From positions 4,169 to 68,168 of the forward strand of contig SVGU01000002.1 in NCBI GenBank assembly GCA_015056155.1: a DNA stretch of 64,000 nucleotides, read 5' to 3'. Numbering within the stretch: the first letter of the stretch is position 1; each line of letters opens with the position of its first letter. The stretch is from Clostridiales bacterium. GTDB lineage: Bacteria > Bacillota > Clostridia > Christensenellales > Aristaeellaceae. The notes below the pieces were generated by a model. The model did not search any database. It was not told the DNA's origin and saw only the letters and a program-made list of their open reading frames with translations. The position numbers and the translations under genes were made by a program. Shown here in pieces: positions 24,205 through 36,260 of the stretch.

Positions 24205-24268
24205 TCAGCAGGAATTCCGCCCCCGCAGCCCGAATATACCCACAACGATTCTTGTCGGATTGGAGCGA

Positions 24269-25537
24269 ATGAAGACGATGGACTATTCCTGTTATCTGAA
24301 GAAGATCAAGGCATCCCTTGCCCCCTCCACCGGCTGCACCGAGCCCGCAGCCATCGCGCTCAACGCCGCCACCGCCCGCGCCAGCGTCCGGGGCAGCATC
24401 ACTCGTGTGACATCGCGCCTGGACGCCTACCTGTTCAAGAACGCCATGGGCGTGGGCATTCCCGGCGCTGATGAGCGCGGCGTGAGCCTGTGCGTGGCGC
24501 TGGGCATCACCGCCGGCGACCCCCATGCCGGCATGAACGCCCTGCACACCGTCAAGCCCGATCAGCTGCAGGAGGCCAAGCTCCTGCGGGAGATGGTGAC
24601 GGTGGAGATCGCCGAGGAGGCCAGGGGGCTGTATATCGAGACGATCATCGAGACGGCGGAGGACACCGTGCGCGTCATCACCTCCGGCGAGCATGAATGC
24701 ATCGCCCGCATCGAGCACGCGCCCTTCGCCCCCTTCACCCCCGCAGAGGCGGAGGATGCCGAGGCCGCGCACGAGGGCTCCCTGGGCGAATTCATCGAGT
24801 TCGCCCGCACCTGCCCGCTGGAGGAGCTGACCTTCCTGCGCGATGCGCTGAACATGAACCGCGTCGTGTACTACCGCGCGATGGAGGAAGGTCTGGCGCA
24901 CCACGTGCTGCCCAACATGCTCCTGCAGGACGGCAGCCTCTACGCACAGGCCAAGAAGATGGCCGGCACGGCGAGCTACGCCCGCATGCACGGCATCCCC
25001 CTGCCCGTCATGACCGCCACCGGCAGCGGCAATCAGGGCCTGACGCTGTTCCTCACCGTGGATGCGGCCGCCCGCACCTTCAACGTATCCGAGGAGCGGC
25101 TGCTGCGCGCGCTGGCGGCGGCCTGCCTTGCCAACGTGTACATCAAGAGCTTCATCGGCCCGCTGTCCAGCGTATGCGCCTGCGGCGTGGCGTCCGGACT
25201 TTCCGCGTCCATCGGCGTGGTGTTCCTGATGGGCGGCGGCGAGAAGGAGATGCTGCAGGCGAGCCGGAACATTCTGGGTTCCGTCAGCGGCATGATCTGC
25301 GACGGCGCGAAGGAGGGCTGCGCATCGAAGGTGGCGCTGAGCGCGGGCCTGGCGGTGGAAGCGGCGTGTCTGGCGATGGAGGGCGGCGGCATCCATGCGC
25401 AGGATGGTATTCTGGATGAGAGCTTTGACCGGCTGATTGCGCATCTGGGCGAGCTGGTCTGTGTGGGCATGGGCGGCACGAACGACACGATCGTGCACAT
25501 CATGAAGGACGAAAAAGTACGCCGCCCCAACTGCTGA
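24269..25537 (+). CDS. UPF0597/YhaM-type L-cysteine desulfidase-like protein (serine dehydratase alpha-chain family)
   Basis: ..IKASLAPSTGCTEPAAIALNAA..MTATGSGNQGLT..GMICDGAKEGCASKVA.. The start is uncertain: TTG 24260, ATG 24269 or ATG 24278, none with a good SD. Confidence 0.8.
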   Translation: MKTMDYSCYLKKIKASLAPSTGCTEPAAIALNAATARASVRGSITRVTSRLDAYLFKNAMGVGIPGADERGVSLCVALGITAGDPHAGMNALHTVKPDQLQEAKLLREMVTVEIAEEARGLYIETIIETAEDTVRVITSGEHECIARIEHAPFAPFTPAEAEDAEAAHEGSLGEFIEFARTCPLEELTFLRDALNMNRVVYYRAMEEGLAHHVLPNMLLQDGSLYAQAKKMAGTASYARMHGIPLPVMTATGSGNQGLTLFLTVDAAARTFNVSEERLLRALAAACLANVYIKSFIGPLSSVCACGVASGLSASIGVVFLMGGGEKEMLQASRNILGSVSGMICDGAKEGCASKVALSAGLAVEAACLAMEGGGIHAQDGILDESFDRLIAHLGELVCVGMGGTNDTIVHIMKDEKVRRPNC

Positions 25538-25546
25538 CAAGGGGAC

Positions 25547-25697
25547 GGGAAAAAAGGGTTAAGGGGTGAAACCCCCTTACGGGGTGCAGGGCCGCGGAGG
25601 CCCTGCCCGCCGGAGGCCCGCCGCAGCGTCCCCGCGCCCGCAGGCGCAATCCCCACGACGCCTTTGAACGATCTCCGATCGTTCAAACAGTCCGACC
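25547..25697 (+). repeat. Repeat family A arm (about 105 bp) plus family B hairpin
   Basis: GGGAAAAAAGGGTTAAGGGGTGAAACCCCCT..CGCGCCCGCAGGCGCAA.. is homologous to 35577-35684. It is followed by GCCTTTGAACGATCTCCGATCGTTCAAACAGTCCGACC (10-bp stem, 3-nt loop), as at 35690 and 35893. Confidence 0.85.
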
Positions 25698-25824
25698 GAC
25701 TCCAAAAGAAAAAGACACCCCAGTGCAGTAACTTCAATCCTCCGCCCCGCACCAGCAACACAGGAAAAGTCCTGAAGCAAGAGGCAGATCTGGCCCAACA
25801 GAATTCCGCAGTTGCCACGGAGAA

Positions 25825-25869
25825 CTCCCTCAGTCGCCTTGCGGCGACAGCTCCCTCAGGGAGGGAGCC
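25825..25869 (+). repeat. Repeat family C double palindrome
   Basis: CTCCCTCAGTCGCCTTGCGGCGACAGCTCCCTCAGGGAGGGAGCC. The reverse-complement copy lies at 39862-39905. Confidence 0.85.
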
Positions 25870-25956
25870 TTTGGACGGCGGCCCTGCGCCAACGCAAGTT
25901 CCCTGTTTTCAGACAGAGGAAGCTGCACGCCCATCCCAACAAAAAGGAGAATTTCC

Positions 25957-26778
25957 ATGTCTAACAAGCCCGCATCCGCCTCGGAGCTGCTCAGCCGCGT
26001 ATGGAGCGCCATGGCCGCCACGTGGCAGACCCTGCTGAGCATGACCTTCGCCATCAGCCTGATCAACTTCGCAGCCTCGGTGCTGCTGCGCTATATCCCC
26101 GCGCCGCTGGCTCTGGTGGCGGACATCGCGGTAATACTGTTCACGACCGTGCTTTCCTGCGGCGTGCTGAACGGTACGCTGAGCTATGTGCGCCGGGGGA
26201 TCATCACCTTCGACCACCTCACCAGCATGCTGCCCTACGCGAAACAGATGATCTGCGCCTACCTGTGGCAATGCCTGTTCATGTTCCTGTGGATGCTGCC
26301 CGGCCTGCTGTGCGTCTTCATCGGCTTCGCCATGATGTTTACTGCCCTCGACGGCGCAGCGATCATCGGGATCAGCACCATGGCATATACCCTGGCCAAG
26401 GGCGCCGACGGACTCATGATGGCCTCGACTGCCTTCAGCCTCGCCGGCATGGTGCTCATGCTGTGGCTGGGCTTCCGCGCGGCGCTGAACTACACGCTGG
26501 CCACCTGCTTCATCGTGGATACCCCCGATATGGGCGGCGTAGCGGCGCTGGAAAAGAGCAAGCAGGCCATGCGCGGCCACCGCTGGCGCTTTGTGAAGAT
26601 GTCCATTCCGGTGTTCGTGATGACCCTGATCATCTCCATCATCACCGATCAGCTTTCCGGCATAACGAGCGGCGTCACGTGGATGCTGATCTCCTCCATC
26701 CTCAACGTCGTGCCGCAGGTGATGAGCCTGTACATCGTCCCTGTGCTGTACGAAGAGGCGCTCGACACAGAACAGTGA
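25957..26778 (+). CDS. DUF975-family integral membrane protein
   Basis: 273 aa, multi-TM, SD AAAGGAGAA. The layout is typical of DUF975. A paralogue lies at 58442..59431. Confidence 0.75.
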   Translation: MSNKPASASELLSRVWSAMAATWQTLLSMTFAISLINFAASVLLRYIPAPLALVADIAVILFTTVLSCGVLNGTLSYVRRGIITFDHLTSMLPYAKQMICAYLWQCLFMFLWMLPGLLCVFIGFAMMFTALDGAAIIGISTMAYTLAKGADGLMMASTAFSLAGMVLMLWLGFRAALNYTLATCFIVDTPDMGGVAALEKSKQAMRGHRWRFVKMSIPVFVMTLIISIITDQLSGITSGVTWMLISSILNVVPQVMSLYIVPVLYEEALDTEQ

Positions 26779-26795
26779 AAGAACAATCCCCACCC

Positions 26796-26825
26796 TTGAC
26801 ATGTCTGTATACAAAGTGCTATCAT
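26796..26825 (+). promoter_or_regulatory. Sigma-70 promoter of the aro leader-aroF-aroB operon
   Basis: TTGACA (26796-26801), 18-nt spacer, TATCAT (26820-26825). Confidence 0.6.
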
Positions 26826-26850
26826 CAACCACACAAGGAGGATGAATGCC

Positions 26851-26922
26851 ATGCGGTACGCTTATTACTTCGCGTTTACGTTCCCGGCCGCTTATGCTGC
26901 CGGGCTGGTTGACGTTCCGTGA
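26851..26922 (+). CDS. Aromatic-rich leader peptide (23 aa) of the aroF-aroB operon
   Basis: SD AAGGAGG (26835-26841), 9-nt spacer, then ATG 26851. Translation: MRYAYYFAFTFPAAYAAGLVDVP*. Seven of 23 residues are Tyr or Phe. An in-frame upstream ATG at 26842 would add MNA. It is below the track length cutoff, so it was found by hand. Confidence 0.55.
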   Translation: MRYAYYFAFTFPAAYAAGLVDVP

Positions 26923-26966
26923 AGTAAGCTGACGCATGCCCGATTCCCCTGAATTGTGACATGATG

Positions 26967-27001
26967 CGCGGAGGCTCCTTTGCGGGCTTCCGCGTCTTTT
27001 T
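26967..27001 (+). terminator. Attenuator terminator between the leader peptide and aroF
   Basis: CGCGGAGGC (26967-26975) pairs with GCTTCCGCG (26986-26994) with one G-U pair, followed by TCTTTTTA. The aroF SD starts about 22 nt later. Confidence 0.6.
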
Positions 27002-27037
27002 ATGCCGCGAGCGACTTATTTCGAAGGAGGAACCACC

Positions 27038-28054
27038 ATGATTATCGTTCTGAAGCAAGGCACCACCCGTCAGGAGATCGACTACGTAACGAATGTCATC
27101 GTCAGCAAGGGTAACATCACCGTCAACCCCATGATCGGCAACGACCTGACCATCCTCGGCCTGATCGGCGACACCAGCCGCCTTGACCCGGCGCAGATCG
27201 AGTCCCTGCGCTGCGTGGAACGTATCATGAAGGTGGCAGAGCCGTTCAAGAAGGCCAACCGCATGTTCCATCCGGGCCCCTCGGAGGTGAAGATCGGCGA
27301 CAGCGTCGTGGGCGGCGAAAAGCTGAGCGTGATGGCCGGACCCTGCTCGGTGGAGTCGGAAGCGCAGATCGAGGAGGTCGCCAGGAGCGTGAAGGAAGCC
27401 GGCGCGACCGTGCTGCGCGGCGGCGCATTCAAGCCCCGCACCAGCCCCTACTCCTTCCAGGGCCTGGAATACCGCGGCCTGGACCTGCTCTGCCATGCCC
27501 GCGAGGTCACCGGCCTCCCCATCGTGACGGAGCTGATGAGCCCCTTTGACATCGACAAGTTCGAGGACAAGGTAGACTGCATCCAGGTCGGCGCGCGCAA
27601 CATGCAGAACTTCGACCTGCTCAAGCGGCTGGGCAAAACCAGCAAGCCCATCCTGCTCAAGCGCGGTCTCTCCGCCACGATCGAAGAGTGGCTCATGTCC
27701 GCCGAGTACATCATGGCGGGCGGCAACGAGAACGTCATCCTCTGCGAGCGCGGCATCCGCACATTCGAGACCTACACGCGCAACACCACCGACCTGTCCG
27801 CCATCTGCGCGGTGAAGCGCCTGAGCCACCTGCCGGTCATCGTCGATCCCAGCCACGCCACCGGCAAGTACTGGATGGTGCAGCCCCTGGCCCGCGCGGC
27901 CATCGCCGTGGGCGCAGACGGTCTGATGATCGAGGTGCACAACGACCCCGCCCACGCCCTGTGCGACGGCGCCCAGTCCATCAAGCCCGACACCTTTGCC
28001 GAGGTCATGAACGACATCAGGAATATTGCACGCGCGGTCGGACGAGAGATTTAA
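27038..28054 (+). CDS. aroF: 3-deoxy-7-phosphoheptulonate (DAHP) synthase, type I-beta with N-terminal ACT/ferredoxin-like regulatory domain
   Basis: Start moved to ATG 27038 (GAAGGAGG upstream). MIIVLKQGTTRQEIDYV.. is the regulatory domain. Then ..VMAGPCSVES..LRGGAFKPRTSPYSFQG..VGARNMQNF..KRG..CERGIRTFE..VDPSH.. matches KDSA/AroF-type. Confidence 0.92.
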   Translation: MIIVLKQGTTRQEIDYVTNVIVSKGNITVNPMIGNDLTILGLIGDTSRLDPAQIESLRCVERIMKVAEPFKKANRMFHPGPSEVKIGDSVVGGEKLSVMAGPCSVESEAQIEEVARSVKEAGATVLRGGAFKPRTSPYSFQGLEYRGLDLLCHAREVTGLPIVTELMSPFDIDKFEDKVDCIQVGARNMQNFDLLKRLGKTSKPILLKRGLSATIEEWLMSAEYIMAGGNENVILCERGIRTFETYTRNTTDLSAICAVKRLSHLPVIVDPSHATGKYWMVQPLARAAIAVGADGLMIEVHNDPAHALCDGAQSIKPDTFAEVMNDIRNIARAVGREI

Positions 28055-28165
28055 TTCGGAATTCGGAATGCGGAATGCGGAATTGAGAATGTGGGCACGC
28101 CTGTTTCCGATTTTTCCGTCCCACCAAACAAATTCCGAATTCCGAATTCATAATTCATAATTTCC
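28053..28165. repeat. Inverted pair of heptad arrays forming a long imperfect hairpin between aroF and aroB
   Basis: The left array is AATTCGG AATTCGG AATGCGG AATGCGG AATTGAG AATGTGG (28053-28094). The right array is AATTCCG AATTCCG AATTCAT AATTCAT AATTTCC (28131-28165). GTGGG..CCCAC closes the loop. It starts inside the aroF stop codon. Confidence 0.9.
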
Positions 28166-28179
28166 ATCAGGAGTTTGCT

Positions 28180-29253
28180 ATGCAGAAAATCATCGTTCCA
28201 TTAGCCTCCCGCTCCTACCCTATCCATATCGGTTCAGGTCTGCTGGACAGCCTGGGCGCTTATGTGCGCGAGGCGCTGGGAGAGATCACCGTCGCGGTGG
28301 TCACGGATGACAACGTCGCGCCGCTGTACCTCAGCCGGGCGGTGAAGTCCCTGCTGGCCGCCGGGCTGAAGGTGAAGTCCATCACCCTGCCCCACGGCGA
28401 GGCGACCAAGTGCCTCAGCCGCCTGAGCGACCTGTACGACTTCCTCTGCCATGCCCGCATCACCCGCAAGGACGCGGTCATCGCGCTGGGCGGCGGCGTC
28501 ATCGGCGACCTGACCGGTCTCGCCGCGGCAACCTTCCTGCGGGGCGTTCACTTTGTGCAGGTGCCCACCACCCTGCTGGCGCAGGTCGATTCCTCCGTGG
28601 GCGGCAAGGTCGCCGTCGACCTCCCCCAGGGCAAGAATCTCGTCGGCGCGTTCTATCAGCCCGATTTCGTCCTCATCGACCCCGACACGCTGAACACCCT
28701 GACGGAGGAGTTCTGGCGGGACGGCCTGGGCGAGGTGGTCAAGTACGGCTGCATCAATGACGCGGAGCTCTTTACGCTGCTGGAGCAGGCAGCCCCCGGC
28801 GGCCGCGCGGCGCTGATGGAGCACATCGACACGATCCTGCGGCACTGCGTGCAGGCCAAAGCCGACGTGGTCGCCCAGGACGAGCGCGATACAGGGCTGC
28901 GCATGACGCTCAACTTCGGCCACACCATCGCCCATGCCGTGGAGACCTGTCAGCACTACGAAGGCCTGCGCCACGGCGAGGCCGTGAGCCTGGGCATGCA
29001 CGTGATGACCCGGCTGACCGAGCGCAAGGGCATGACCGTCCCCGGCGCCGCCGACCGCCTCGATGCGCTGCTGACCGCCCTGCAGATGCCCATGCAGCTG
29101 CCTGCCATCCCGGAGAGCGACCTCCTGTCCGCCATGGGCATGGACAAGAAGTCCGCCGGAAAGGTGCTGCGCATCATCGCCCTCTCCCGCATCGGCGAGT
29201 GTTTCATCCATGAGACGGATGTGAGCTTCTTCGCCGGCATGACAACGCTGTAA
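28180..29253 (+). CDS. aroB: 3-dehydroquinate synthase
   Basis: ..VVTDDNVAPLY..LPHGEATK..ALGGGVIGDLTG..VPTTLLAQVDSSVGGK..LNFGHTIAHA..HGEAV.. Confidence 0.93.
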   Translation: MQKIIVPLASRSYPIHIGSGLLDSLGAYVREALGEITVAVVTDDNVAPLYLSRAVKSLLAAGLKVKSITLPHGEATKCLSRLSDLYDFLCHARITRKDAVIALGGGVIGDLTGLAAATFLRGVHFVQVPTTLLAQVDSSVGGKVAVDLPQGKNLVGAFYQPDFVLIDPDTLNTLTEEFWRDGLGEVVKYGCINDAELFTLLEQAAPGGRAALMEHIDTILRHCVQAKADVVAQDERDTGLRMTLNFGHTIAHAVETCQHYEGLRHGEAVSLGMHVMTRLTERKGMTVPGAADRLDALLTALQMPMQLPAIPESDLLSAMGMDKKSAGKVLRIIALSRIGECFIHETDVSFFAGMTTL

Positions 29254-29260
29254 GCCTCAA

Positions 29261-29292
29261 GCCGTCCGGTACGCCTTGCCGGGCGGCTTTTT
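29261..29292 (+). terminator. Intrinsic terminator after aroB
   Basis: GCCGTCCGG (29261-29269) pairs with CCGGGCGGC (29279-29287), followed by TTTTT. Confidence 0.7.
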
Positions 29293-29392
29293 CTGTCCGC
29301 TTGCAGGAGTTCCGCCACAGGGCAGCGAAAGGTATAACCATTTCCGCCGAAATATGCGATCAGGAGGCGTCCGGTGGAGCAGATCATCCCCC

Positions 29393-29647
29393 ATGTTCAC
29401 GGCGCAGACCCGCCGGCCCATCGCCTCGCAGCCCGCGGAAAGCTGGATCTCCGGCTTCTCCGGCTACCGCACATATGGCAACAGCCTGATCCCAGAAGCG
29501 CTCTCTCCCGCCATCATCCGCTGCCATTGCAGCGACCATGTCAATGACGGCCATTACAGCAACCTGGTCTTTGACATGGAGCTCCACCCCACCGACGCCC
29601 CTGAAGCGCACCGCCATCACATCACACAGAAAGAGGTATCCGCATGA
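29393..29647 (+). CDS. Small hypothetical protein possibly coupled to the GH43 gene
   Basis: Its stop overlaps the GH43 start (ATGA at 29644-29647). The SD is weak and no motif is recognised, so it could be non-coding. Confidence 0.3.
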   Translation: MFTAQTRRPIASQPAESWISGFSGYRTYGNSLIPEALSPAIIRCHCSDHVNDGHYSNLVFDMELHPTDAPEAHRHHITQKEVSA

Positions 29648-34344: not shown

Positions 34345-35598
34345 ATGATCGCTGAAATCCTCTGCATCGGCACGGAGCTGCTGATGGGGCAGGTGCTCAA
34401 CACCAATGCCCAGTTTCTTTCCCGGCGGCTGAGCGCGCTGGGGATCAGCCAGTATCACCAGACGGTCGTGGGCGACAACGCCGCGCGGCTCGAGGCGGCC
34501 TACCGCCTTGCGCTGAGCCGGGCGGACGTGGTCATCACCTCCGGCGGCCTCGGCCCCACCGCCGACGACATCACCAAGCGCATCGCCGCGAAGGTCGCCG
34601 GGCAGGAGCTCGTCCTCTTCCCCGAGGCCGAGGAGATGATCCGCACCCGCTTCCGGCAGTATCGCAAGGAAATGACCGCCAACAACCTTTCCCAGGCCAT
34701 GTTCACCCCGGACACGACCGTGCTCCTGAACCCCAACGGCACCGCACCGGGCGCGATCGTCCCCATGGGCGGCAGCAAGGTCGTGATCCATCTGCCCGGC
34801 CCGCCCTTTGAACTGGAGCCGATGTTCATCGACCAGGTGGAGCCGTACCTGCTCCAGCGCTCCGGCCGGGCGCTGGTGAGCCGCTACATCCGCATTTTCG
34901 GCATGGGCGAGGCTGCCATCGACCTCAGGCTGCGCGACCTGATGGCCGGCAGCAACCCGACCCTCTCCCCCTATTGCTCCCTGGGCGAGGTCATGCTGCG
35001 CGCCACCGCCTCCGCGCCCACGAAGGAGGAGGCCGAGGCGCTCCTGCCGCCGCTGCTCGACGAGGTCAGGGCACGGCTGGGCGATGTGATCTACGCCATC
35101 GACGAGGATGACAGCGGTTCCCTCGCCCGCGTCGCTGTGGATGCACTCAAAGCGCGCGGCTGGACCTGCGCCGCCTGCGAAAGCCTGACCGGCGGCATGA
35201 TCTCCGCGGCGCTCGTCGGCGTGCCGGGCGCTTCTGCGGTGGTGCGCGGCGGGTTCGTGACGTATCAGACGGATACGAAGACGCTGCTGGCCGGGGTACC
35301 GGCGGAGATGATCGAACGGTTTGATGTGGTGAGCGCTGAGGTCGCGATGGCGATGGCGCAGGGAACACGGGAACGGCTGGATGTGGATGTTGCGGTCAGT
35401 GCGACAGGGCTTGCAGGGCCGGATGGGGGGACCCCGGAGAAGCCGGTGGGGACGGTGTTTGTGGGGATCGCGACAAGGGCAGGGGCACGGGTGCTGCCGC
35501 TTGCCCTGACGGGCAACCGGGAACGCATCCGTACCCTCACGGTAAAGCACGCCCTAAGTCAACTCGCAAAGGAAGCGGGAAAAAGGGTCCAGGGGTGA
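34345..35598 (+). CDS. cinA: CinA-family competence/damage-inducible protein (MoCF-binding domain plus PncC-like NMN deamidase domain)
   Basis: MIAEILCIGTELLMGQVLNTNAQFLS..VVITSGGLGPTADDITK..NGTAPG.. with C-terminus ..CESLTGGMISAALV..GASAV..GGFVTY.. Confidence 0.92.
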   Translation: MIAEILCIGTELLMGQVLNTNAQFLSRRLSALGISQYHQTVVGDNAARLEAAYRLALSRADVVITSGGLGPTADDITKRIAAKVAGQELVLFPEAEEMIRTRFRQYRKEMTANNLSQAMFTPDTTVLLNPNGTAPGAIVPMGGSKVVIHLPGPPFELEPMFIDQVEPYLLQRSGRALVSRYIRIFGMGEAAIDLRLRDLMAGSNPTLSPYCSLGEVMLRATASAPTKEEAEALLPPLLDEVRARLGDVIYAIDEDDSGSLARVAVDALKARGWTCAACESLTGGMISAALVGVPGASAVVRGGFVTYQTDTKTLLAGVPAEMIERFDVVSAEVAMAMAQGTRERLDVDVAVSATGLAGPDGGTPEKPVGTVFVGIATRAGARVLPLALTGNRERIRTLTVKHALSQLAKEAGKRVQG

Positions 35599-36260
35599 AG
35601 CCCCTGGCGGGGTGGAGGGGCGCGGAGCCCCTCCCCGTCGGAGACCTCCGCCGCAGCGGCCCCGCGCCCGCAGGCGCAAACACCATGACGCCTTTGAACG
35701 ATCTCCGATCGTTCAAACAGTCCGACCAACGCCAAAAGAGAAGACAACAAAGTGCACCATTCCCACATCTGCCTGCATCATGTAGTACCAAAGGGCAGTA
35801 CATCCATAATACACGATAACAGAACCGGCAGCGTTGCTTTCCTTTAAGACGCTGCCGGTTCTGTTTGTTGGATTGGGCGCAAACACCATGACGCCTTTGA
35901 ACGATCTCCAATCGTTCAAACAGTCCGACCAACGCCAAAAGAGAAAACAACAAAGTGCACCATTCCCACATCTGCCTGCATCATGTAGTACCAAAGGGCA
36001 GTACATCCATAATACACGATAACAAACCGGCAGCGTTGCTTTCCTTGCAGACACTGCCGGTTCTGTTTGTTGGATTGATTGGTGGACTGAAGCCTTTTCT
36101 TTGTTTGTTGGCTTAGCTGTTTCAGGAAAATCGGGGATTTTCCTGAAAGGCGCTGCGGTGTGTGCGCCTGCGGGCGCGGAGGTCTCCGACGGGGAGGGCT
36201 TACGCAGCCCTCCACCCGCGCCAGGGGCTTCACCCCTGGACCCTTTTTCCCTCTTCCTTG
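35567..36260. repeat. Composite repeat element: about 105-115-bp inverted arms (family A) bracketing two tandem 203-bp units
   Basis: The left arm (35567-35684) and right arm (36157-36260) are reverse complements apart from a few substitutions and a 15-nt indel. The tandem units are 35673-35875 and 35876-36077. Each has the family B hairpin and a terminator-like hairpin, AACCGGCAGCG..CGCTGCCGGTT-CTGTTTGTT. An extra hairpin, CAGGAAAAT-cgggg-ATTTTCCTG, lies at 36123-36145. The left arm supplies the last 7-10 codons and the stop of cinA. The right arm abuts the scfB stop. Confidence 0.9.

Follow-up and report, generated by a model that had tools for sequence, protein, structure and literature searches.

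A predicted Phe-centred leader-peptide attenuator upstream of aroF-aroB in a Clostridia genome, compared with described aromatic amino acid leaders

Leader-peptide control is considered rare in the Firmicutes, the phylum to which the present locus belongs. The closest described system is uORF-13, the "aromatic amino acid attenuator", a bioinformatic prediction from Clostridium novyi (Stav et al. 2019, BMC Microbiol 19:66; PMC6429828); it counts 336 representatives from Firmicutes and metagenomes (Bacillales, Clostridiales, Thermoanaerobacterales and Negativicutes), which have a P1 stem whose loop bears F-Y-F and a terminator, and of which about half precede aroF. The description stands in the supplement of the survey, where uORF-12 is described as well (PMC6429828). 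A further aroF upstream ORF (uORF) candidate, uORFC-13-1, was reported from Acholeplasma and environmental sequences, with 24 representatives and a restriction to Acholeplasma (Brewer et al. 2021, RNA Biol 18:2417; PMC8632094); here, too, aroF is preceded by a terminator and by a uORF that contains Phe codons, and attenuation is proposed, as in our locus. For the aroR-aroF leader of Corynebacterium glutamicum (Neshat et al. 2014, as summarised in PMC11802643 and in the supplement of PMC6429828), read-through reportedly rises on limitation for Phe and not for Tyr. In these summaries, the DAHP synthase operon of C. glutamicum is, like ours, preceded by a leader peptide with aromatic codons (there Phe-Tyr-Phe), and its response to Phe matches the Phe-centred conservation described below, whereas the organism belongs to the Actinobacteria and sequence and structure are unrelated. 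The kind of control considered here has thus already been predicted for aroF in Firmicutes and no new regulatory principle is involved; a sequence-only reading of this DNA, which had implied novelty for the phylum, overstated it, since aroF attenuators with aromatic uORFs were predicted earlier (PMC6429828, PMC8632094).

The locus lies in a 64-kb stretch of DNA (the window, to which all coordinates refer), with leader and operon on its forward strand. It has in common with uORF-13 the phylum, the aroF/DAHP synthase and shikimate targets (for uORF-13, in about half of its cases), a Phe/Tyr-rich ORF within a hairpin, a terminator and the proposed mechanism, and its location, too, is that of the published description (upstream of aroF, with a short ORF and a terminator, in the Firmicutes). 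It differs in the sequences of both peptide and RNA: uORF-13 places its F-Y-F in the P1 loop of an ORF of 35-50 codons, whereas the window has a 23-codon ORF with F-A-F-T-F-P ahead of the apical hairpin, whose loop contains just one Tyr codon. Judging from comparative sequence evidence and folding models, we consider it likely that this leader acts as a classical ribosome-mediated leader-peptide transcription attenuator controlling aroF-aroB.

The first gene of the operon, aroF (27038-28054; Shine-Dalgarno sequence read from the DNA at 27024-27030), encodes a type I-beta DAHP synthase (NCBIfam NF006421, 494 bits; Pfam DAHP_synth_1 and DAHP_snth_FXD) that carries a ferredoxin-like regulatory domain (PF18152) at its N-terminus; it is followed by aroB for 3-dehydroquinate synthase (28180-29253; TIGR01357, 372 bits) and by a terminator, detected in the terminator scan at 29259-29289, which closes the aroF-aroB operon. 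DAHP synthases of this type undergo allosteric inhibition via the ferredoxin-like domain, and attenuation would add to this inhibition of AroF. On the other side, a DUF975 gene (25957-26778) ends ahead of a sigma-70-type promoter (26796-26825) that consists of the -35 element TTGACA (26796-26801), an 18-nt spacer with TG 5' of the -10, and the -10 element TATCAT (26820-26825); it agrees with the consensus at 11 of 12 positions and is the sole sigma-70-like match in 25500-29500. A leader Shine-Dalgarno sequence, AAGGAGG (26835-26841), stands 9 nt ahead of the ATG at 26851, which opens the leader ORF of 23 codons plus TGA, MRYAYYFAFTFPAAYAAGLVDVP (26851-26922), as established by ORF reading and by comparison with 17 leaders. 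Seven of the 23 residues of MRYAYYFAFTFPAAYAAGLVDVP are aromatic, against 7.7% in the proteins of six neighbouring genes (binomial P ~0.0013); the core DNA motif of the uORF occurs a single time in the window, and within the 64 kb this is the sole SD-preceded aromatic-rich short ORF scoring 6/10 with a T-run on its 3' side. The promoter, the SD, the 23-codon uORF with its seven aromatic codons, a small hairpin and the aroF SD had all been named in the sequence-only reading and are all there.

Within the leader, segment 1 (26866-26882; codons TAC TTC GCG TTT ACG TT(C)) forms the 5' strand of a stem, P1, and pairs with 26911-26926; the latter is segment 2 (GACGTTCCGTGAAGTA, with its core CCGTGAAG at 26917-26924), the 3' strand of P1, defined by its alternative pairings. 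In one P1 helix, UACUUCGCG (26866-26874) pairs with CGUGAAGUA (26918-26926), the leader stop codon included, so that the TGA at 26920-26922 is itself part of segment 2; in a second helix, ACGUU (26878-26882) pairs with GACGU (26911-26915). The apical hairpin of P1 (26883-26904), supported by covariation, joins CCCGGC (26883-26888) to GCCGGG (26899-26904), and its loop holds a Tyr codon in the window (26893-26895) and a Tyr or Phe codon in relatives wherever the alignment is readable. In the predicted fold of the window, a variable spacer hairpin, P2, occupies 26935-26963; its sequence is not kept, yet by eye the relatives show a hairpin at the same place. The intrinsic terminator (3:4; 26966-27001) comprises a stem (26966-26977/26984-26995), a loop (26978-26983) and the run CTTTTT. 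Its loop and the two adjoining bases of the 3' arm make up segment 3 (CTTTGCGG, 26978-26985), which is complementary to segment 2, and its 3' arm (26984-26995), from the terminator scan, is segment 4. The GC stem and T-run that had been noticed before are real, the stem measuring 12 bp (26966-26995) and not 9. The whole element is compact, at about 170 nt, with every pairing assignable.

An AroF scan with one genome per species gave 80 aroF loci. The closest of these, with AroF identities of 95-73%, belong to MAGs of Clostridia from the gut or the rumen, several of which bear the label Christensenellales or Christensenellaceae. We aligned the leader of the window with the 16 nearest Christensenellales-like leaders, to which metagenome contigs contributed two (L085 and L183). 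All the aligned leaders have their parts in the same order as the window, upstream of aroF. Both TTGACA and TATAAT are present in 16 of the 17 (in L004 the -35 alone is recognisable), a GGAGG-type SD (mostly AGGAGG) is kept throughout, and the ATG of the uORF falls in one alignment column in every case, as do, without exception, a peptide core of the form F-[A/T]-F-[T/M]-[F/I/Y]-P and a stem with T-run in each leader. An alignment of the regions upstream of aroF, proposed earlier as a check, thus finds the aromatic-rich uORF and the terminator kept in 17/17. Outside the core, neither the peptide sequence nor its length (20 to 29 residues) is constant; where aromatic positions vary, the changes are mostly from Phe to Tyr. 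The stop codon lies within segment 2 or at most 8 nt upstream of it in 15 of the 17, even where the frame has shifted. Relatives differ in the Tyr codons that precede the core, and Phe is the conserved residue, which bears on the earlier suggestion that Tyr/Phe supply is sensed for aroF-aroB: the conserved Phe core and the folding models favour such sensing, with Phe as the probable main signal, while the part assigned to Tyr finds no such constancy. A metagenome scan with a degenerate core pattern returned 120 matches; 118 of them were chance occurrences with no aroF beside them, which left L085 and L183 as the two genuine leaders.

The pairings of this leader are kept by compensation. On the alignment, the three P1 helices are 84-95% paired, the apical stem 90% (17 sequences, 2 pairs altered on both sides) and the terminator stem 92%, with compensatory changes in 8 of its 12 pairs. 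Taken together, P1 and the terminator are 80% paired, against 38-50% with slid partners, and 20 pairs are altered on both sides; the observed values were reached by 0 of 500 shuffles, a statistic that overstates independence because the aligned sequences are related. One pair (121-174) joins the third base of a Phe codon to the middle base of the stop codon, as UUC with UGA in 6 sequences and as UUU with UAA in 7. RNAalifold independently yields the same stems. A pairing between the start-codon region and 26935-26940, at the base of the minimum-free-energy hairpin of the window, is only 32% paired in the relatives and was set aside as window-specific. With the uORF, the Phe core, P1 and the terminator found in all 17 leaders and compensatory changes in the pairings, the sequence and folding evidence argues for the ribosome-mediated attenuator that had been proposed.

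These data also bear on whether the arrangement could be trivial, with a random frame for an ORF and with a hairpin that either terminates the DUF975 gene or insulates constitutively. A genome of 65% G+C is indeed rich in spurious ORFs; but the terminator lies 190 nt 3' of the stop codon of the upstream gene and downstream of a near-consensus promoter, and, as the DUF975 gene ends 5' of that promoter, the leader hairpin is not its terminator. The arrangement is, moreover, kept with covariation in relatives whose AroF is just 73-95% identical, and we therefore attach almost no probability to an origin by chance.

The attenuator reading calls for an antiterminator (2:3) that competes with the terminator, and its strands can be named. 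In RNA form, segment 3, CUUUGCGG (26978-26985), resembles the Phe segment (CUUUACG/CUUCGCG) and complements CCGUGAAG of segment 2 (26917-26924). The resulting 8-bp helix, 26917-26924/26978-26985, is 86.8% paired in the 17 sequences, against 29-58% when slid. Its covariation is modest, with 3 pairs altered on both sides, because both strands are highly conserved. Terminator loops normally drift in sequence; here, the loop and the top of the stem are kept at the nucleotide level across the alignment (GCUC-CUUUGC-GGGC). The duplex of segment 2 with the terminator top has an energy of -14 to -18 kcal/mol (mean z = -1.8 against shuffles), which lies below the shuffled mean in 17/17, with single-sequence shuffle P values from 0.007 to 0.36; the duplex of the segment 2 region with the whole terminator reaches -15 to -23 kcal/mol in 17/17, near that of the 1:2 duplex. 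The earlier proposal, that a mutually exclusive fold be sought between 26899-26945 and the 5' arm of the terminator, is borne out as to the first strand, segment 2 lying within that interval; the partner strand found here is the loop and top of the terminator. Pairing of the terminator 5' arm with upstream sequence was no better than in shuffled sequence (0.54 against 0.50), and a combination that RNAfold suggested for the window, in which the apical hairpin lends its 3' arm (26896-26905) to the terminator 5' arm (26966-26975), is not kept in relatives. Those features of the attenuator class that a sequence can show are found, namely a translatable uORF with SD and ATG, codons for the end product inside a pairing segment, a terminator between the uORF and aroF and, in silico, a mutually exclusive 2:3 antiterminator.

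So strong a conservation of nucleotides might also be expected of an RNA that binds a ligand, a tRNA or a protein (a riboswitch, a T-box or a target of the TRAP/PyrR kind), with the short ORF incidental to it. In the core it is in fact the nucleotides that are kept, even at third codon positions (TTTACGTTTACGTTCCCGG), and the leader is well structured (folding z = -3.1 against shuffles). Yet all 17 leaders retain an SD, the ATG and an open frame, and the stop stays in or just before segment 2 in 15/17; the variable aromatic positions change mostly from Phe to Tyr; and aromatic-rich uORFs of unrelated sequence stand upstream of aroF in many other Clostridia. Segment 2 pairs with segment 1 and also with segment 3, and these two pairings account for the constancy of the nucleotides. 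Searches of Rfam speak in the same sense: the region 26300-27500 has no family match even at E <= 10, T-box included, whereas a T-box (RF00230) was found elsewhere in the same scan, at locus L021. Nothing reached the gathering score in the whole window and no leader family was found at 20 related loci. The leader is thus not a T-box, and we hold a binding RNA to be very improbable.

How a leader-peptide attenuator of this build would work can be followed in folding simulations, for which transcripts ending just 3' of segment 3 were folded with the ribosome-covered RNA masked. With no ribosome, the expected number of 2:3 pairs is 0.6, because P1 holds segment 2; with a ribosome on the first core Phe codon it rises to 11.1; and with a ribosome at the stop codon it is 0.8, because segment 2 is covered. 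This three-state pattern is seen in 16 of the 17 sequences. A stall on the last core Phe codon gives 5.9 pairs, the antiterminator then forming in about half of the sequences, and shuffling of segment 3 lowers the stalled-state value to 4.6. In the full-length leader at equilibrium, the complete terminator dominates in all ribosome states, with a probability of about 0.9; equilibrium folding of that length cannot discriminate the states, and truncated transcripts were used for this reason. It follows that read-through must be kinetic. In the trp and phe attenuators, the decision is likewise a kinetic one, according to the textbooks.

According to these models, the strong promoter would drive transcription and the leader RNA would be translated from the ATG at 26851. 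With charged Phe-tRNA (and Tyr-tRNA) in ample supply, the ribosome would reach the stop codon and mask segment 2, whereupon the 3:4 terminator could fold and transcription would end at about 27001; without translation, segments 1 and 2 would form P1, and the terminator would form again. When charged Phe-tRNA is scarce, the ribosome would be expected to stall at the core Phe codons and so to occupy segment 1. Segment 2, thus freed, could pair with the newly transcribed segment 3; nucleation of the terminator hairpin would be prevented, and RNA polymerase would continue into aroF-aroB. This scheme presumes translation of the uORF, stalling of the ribosome and its synchrony with the polymerase. 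Uncoupling of transcription from translation has been reported for Bacillus subtilis; such uncoupling, if valid in Clostridia too, would make this timing harder.

The leader also resembles that of E. coli pheL-pheA (RF01859). Both leaders follow the 1:2 / 2:3 / 3:4 logic, both have Phe codons in segment 1 that pair downstream (in E. coli, TTCTTCGCATTCT with AGAATGCGAAGA), and the peptides share the motif F-A-F...T-F-P; the E. coli peptide was given correctly in the sequence-only reading. In pheL as in the window, moreover, the Phe run is U-rich, and the G and C needed for its pairing come from Ala, Thr and Pro codons. The two differ in phylum and in target, which in E. coli is pheA and not aroF, and the stop codon of pheL comes directly after FTFP, whereas in the window 11 more codons would take the ribosome across the apical hairpin, the stop codon lying within segment 2. 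The Phe_leader model (RF01859, cut-off 55 bits) has no match in 26300-27500, the E. coli pheL control scoring 132.3 bits. The leader is accordingly not a member of the Rfam Phe_leader family; "pheL-like" holds for the shared motif and logic, as an analogy, and fails as a statement of membership, and the resemblance is best read as convergence.

The same motif raises the question of whether the F-x-F-T-F-P peptide is itself active, either as a TnaC-like arrest peptide, with a free aromatic amino acid sensed within the ribosome tunnel, or as a small hydrophobic peptide with a function of its own, in place of a passive run of sensing codons. A Pro follows the Phe core in 17/17, even where the hairpin is altered (L012, L017), and pheL of E. 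coli ends in the same FTFP. But the Pro codon, CCG or CCC, lies in the G+C-rich apical stem, so that RNA pairing suffices to account for it; the remaining residues vary, as does the length, from 20 to 29 residues; and the sensing of a free end product would amount to induction by that product, the wrong sign for a biosynthetic operon unless stalling promoted termination. For these reasons, an active peptide appears to us a decidedly remote prospect beside tRNA-dependent attenuation.

To place the leader-peptide attenuator of the window among the described families, we compared it with the other leaders of the scan. Of some 82 aroF loci, no fewer than 50 have an aromatic-rich uORF of one kind or another. 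At about 30 of the 80 loci it belongs to a longer leader that reads ...KFYSFFYFxFWGFYFSAGY... or ...FYSFFYFxFWGFYFSAGY..., with sources in Clostridium, Terrisporobacter, Anaerotruncus, Acidaminococcales and Acholeplasmataceae. In these leaders, a conserved AAUGAGU near the stop complements the terminator 5' arm ACUCAUU, with covariation to AGAGU and ACUCU in L039 and to AGAGG and (G)CUCU in L043. From the published description we infer that they are of the uORF-13 type. The Acholeplasmataceae leader L043 groups with this Clostridium type and not with the window type, a point of difference between uORFC-13-1 and our leader.

A covariance model built from 21 Clostridium-type leaders, including that of a C. 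novyi relative (L037), served as a proxy for uORF-13. It found eight more members and left the window and 16 window-type relatives unmatched, with the filters off too. A second model, of the window-type family, has one site in the window, at 26836-27002, with 151.8 bits; on leaders left out of its build it gave 141 bits for L010 (of which L009 is a near-duplicate), 48 bits for L012 and 35 bits for L017. The element therefore represents a sequence family uncatalogued so far, absent from Rfam 15 and not captured by the uORF-13 proxy. The second model also has weak full-length matches in L031 (28 bits) and L034 (23 bits), and L034 contains UUUACGUUUACGG together with the terminator top GCUCUUUGC; from these sequences, the window type and the Clostridium type may be distantly related. 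The opposite reading is that the window type is an independently evolved minimal attenuator and not a diverged uORF-13, the invariant F-T-F-P, which E. coli pheL shares, being a requirement at the peptide level; the Pro after the Phe run would then slow elongation or peptide-bond formation and thereby sharpen the sensing of Phe-tRNA. We regard this reading as unlikely; if it were true, tight ribosome-polymerase timing would operate in a gut Clostridia lineage.

Under either relationship to uORF-13, the predicted attenuator of the window adds a well-resolved example to the as yet untested predictions that entry into the shikimate pathway of Clostridia is controlled by ribosome stalling and not by T-boxes. 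Leader-peptide control of aroF looks like the rule in this class, which bears on the coordination of transcription and translation in Firmicutes. The family model could serve to annotate such leaders in Christensenellales-like gut MAGs, and the element offers a small candidate Phe-responsive part for the engineering of anaerobes. Codon choice, too, speaks for the attenuator: the genome favours TTC and TAC by about 4:1, yet TTT and TAT are frequent in the leader of the window and in those of its relatives.

In the leader (26851-26922), the 23-codon Phe/Tyr-rich upstream open reading frame (uORF) of the proposed attenuator ahead of aroF-aroB, three of the seven aromatic codons are TTT or TAT, despite the preference of the genome for TTC over TTT (61:14) and for TAC over TAT (53:15). 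The TTT-ACG-TTT stretch is kept among the relatives of this leader in A1, our alignment of the window leader with 16 related Christensenellales-like leaders. This use of TTT and TAT may reflect pairing constraints, or it may reflect selection for codons that are slowly decoded.

The aroF loci of other genomes and contigs suggest that leader peptides of several different designs have evolved in Clostridia for this one gene. An unrelated aromatic-rich uORF, with the peptide MNRSFANNFFYLYFYY..., lies about 150-250 nt upstream of aroF in Eubacteriales/Lachnospiraceae MAGs (L064, L065, and L078), and yet another unrelated one, ...RYYFFGTCEFFTWAF..., is found upstream of aroF in a Ruminococcus MAG (L070). 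The Acidaminococcales MAG locus L035 carries at its positions 1160-1286 an aromatic leader of the Clostridium type, which scores 61 bits with R1, the covariance model built from 21 such aroF leaders; it sits ~1.2 kb upstream of aroF and presumably precedes another gene of the aroF operon. Roughly one in four aroF loci showed no aromatic uORF in the 400 nt upstream (L047, L053, L055, L063, L068, and L080, together with others), several Clostridium species and Erysipelotrichaceae being among them. The Rfam scan of L047, L055, and L063 detected neither a T-box nor any other family at aroF.

Two genes upstream of the leader, an ORF (24260-25537) has a serine dehydratase alpha-chain domain (PF03313) as its sole domain and was matched by no NCBIfam model; it is unconnected with the aroF leader finding. 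The window also contains two copies of a G+C-rich intergenic repeat of ~140 nt (25560-25700 and 35575-35720), with a core identity of roughly 85-90%; a perfect inverted repeat, TTTGAACGATC-TCC-GATCGTTCAAA, forms the end of each copy. No part of the whole window, including both copies, reached an Rfam gathering score. A REP/MITE-like element and a small RNA are both possible identities for this intergenic repeat.
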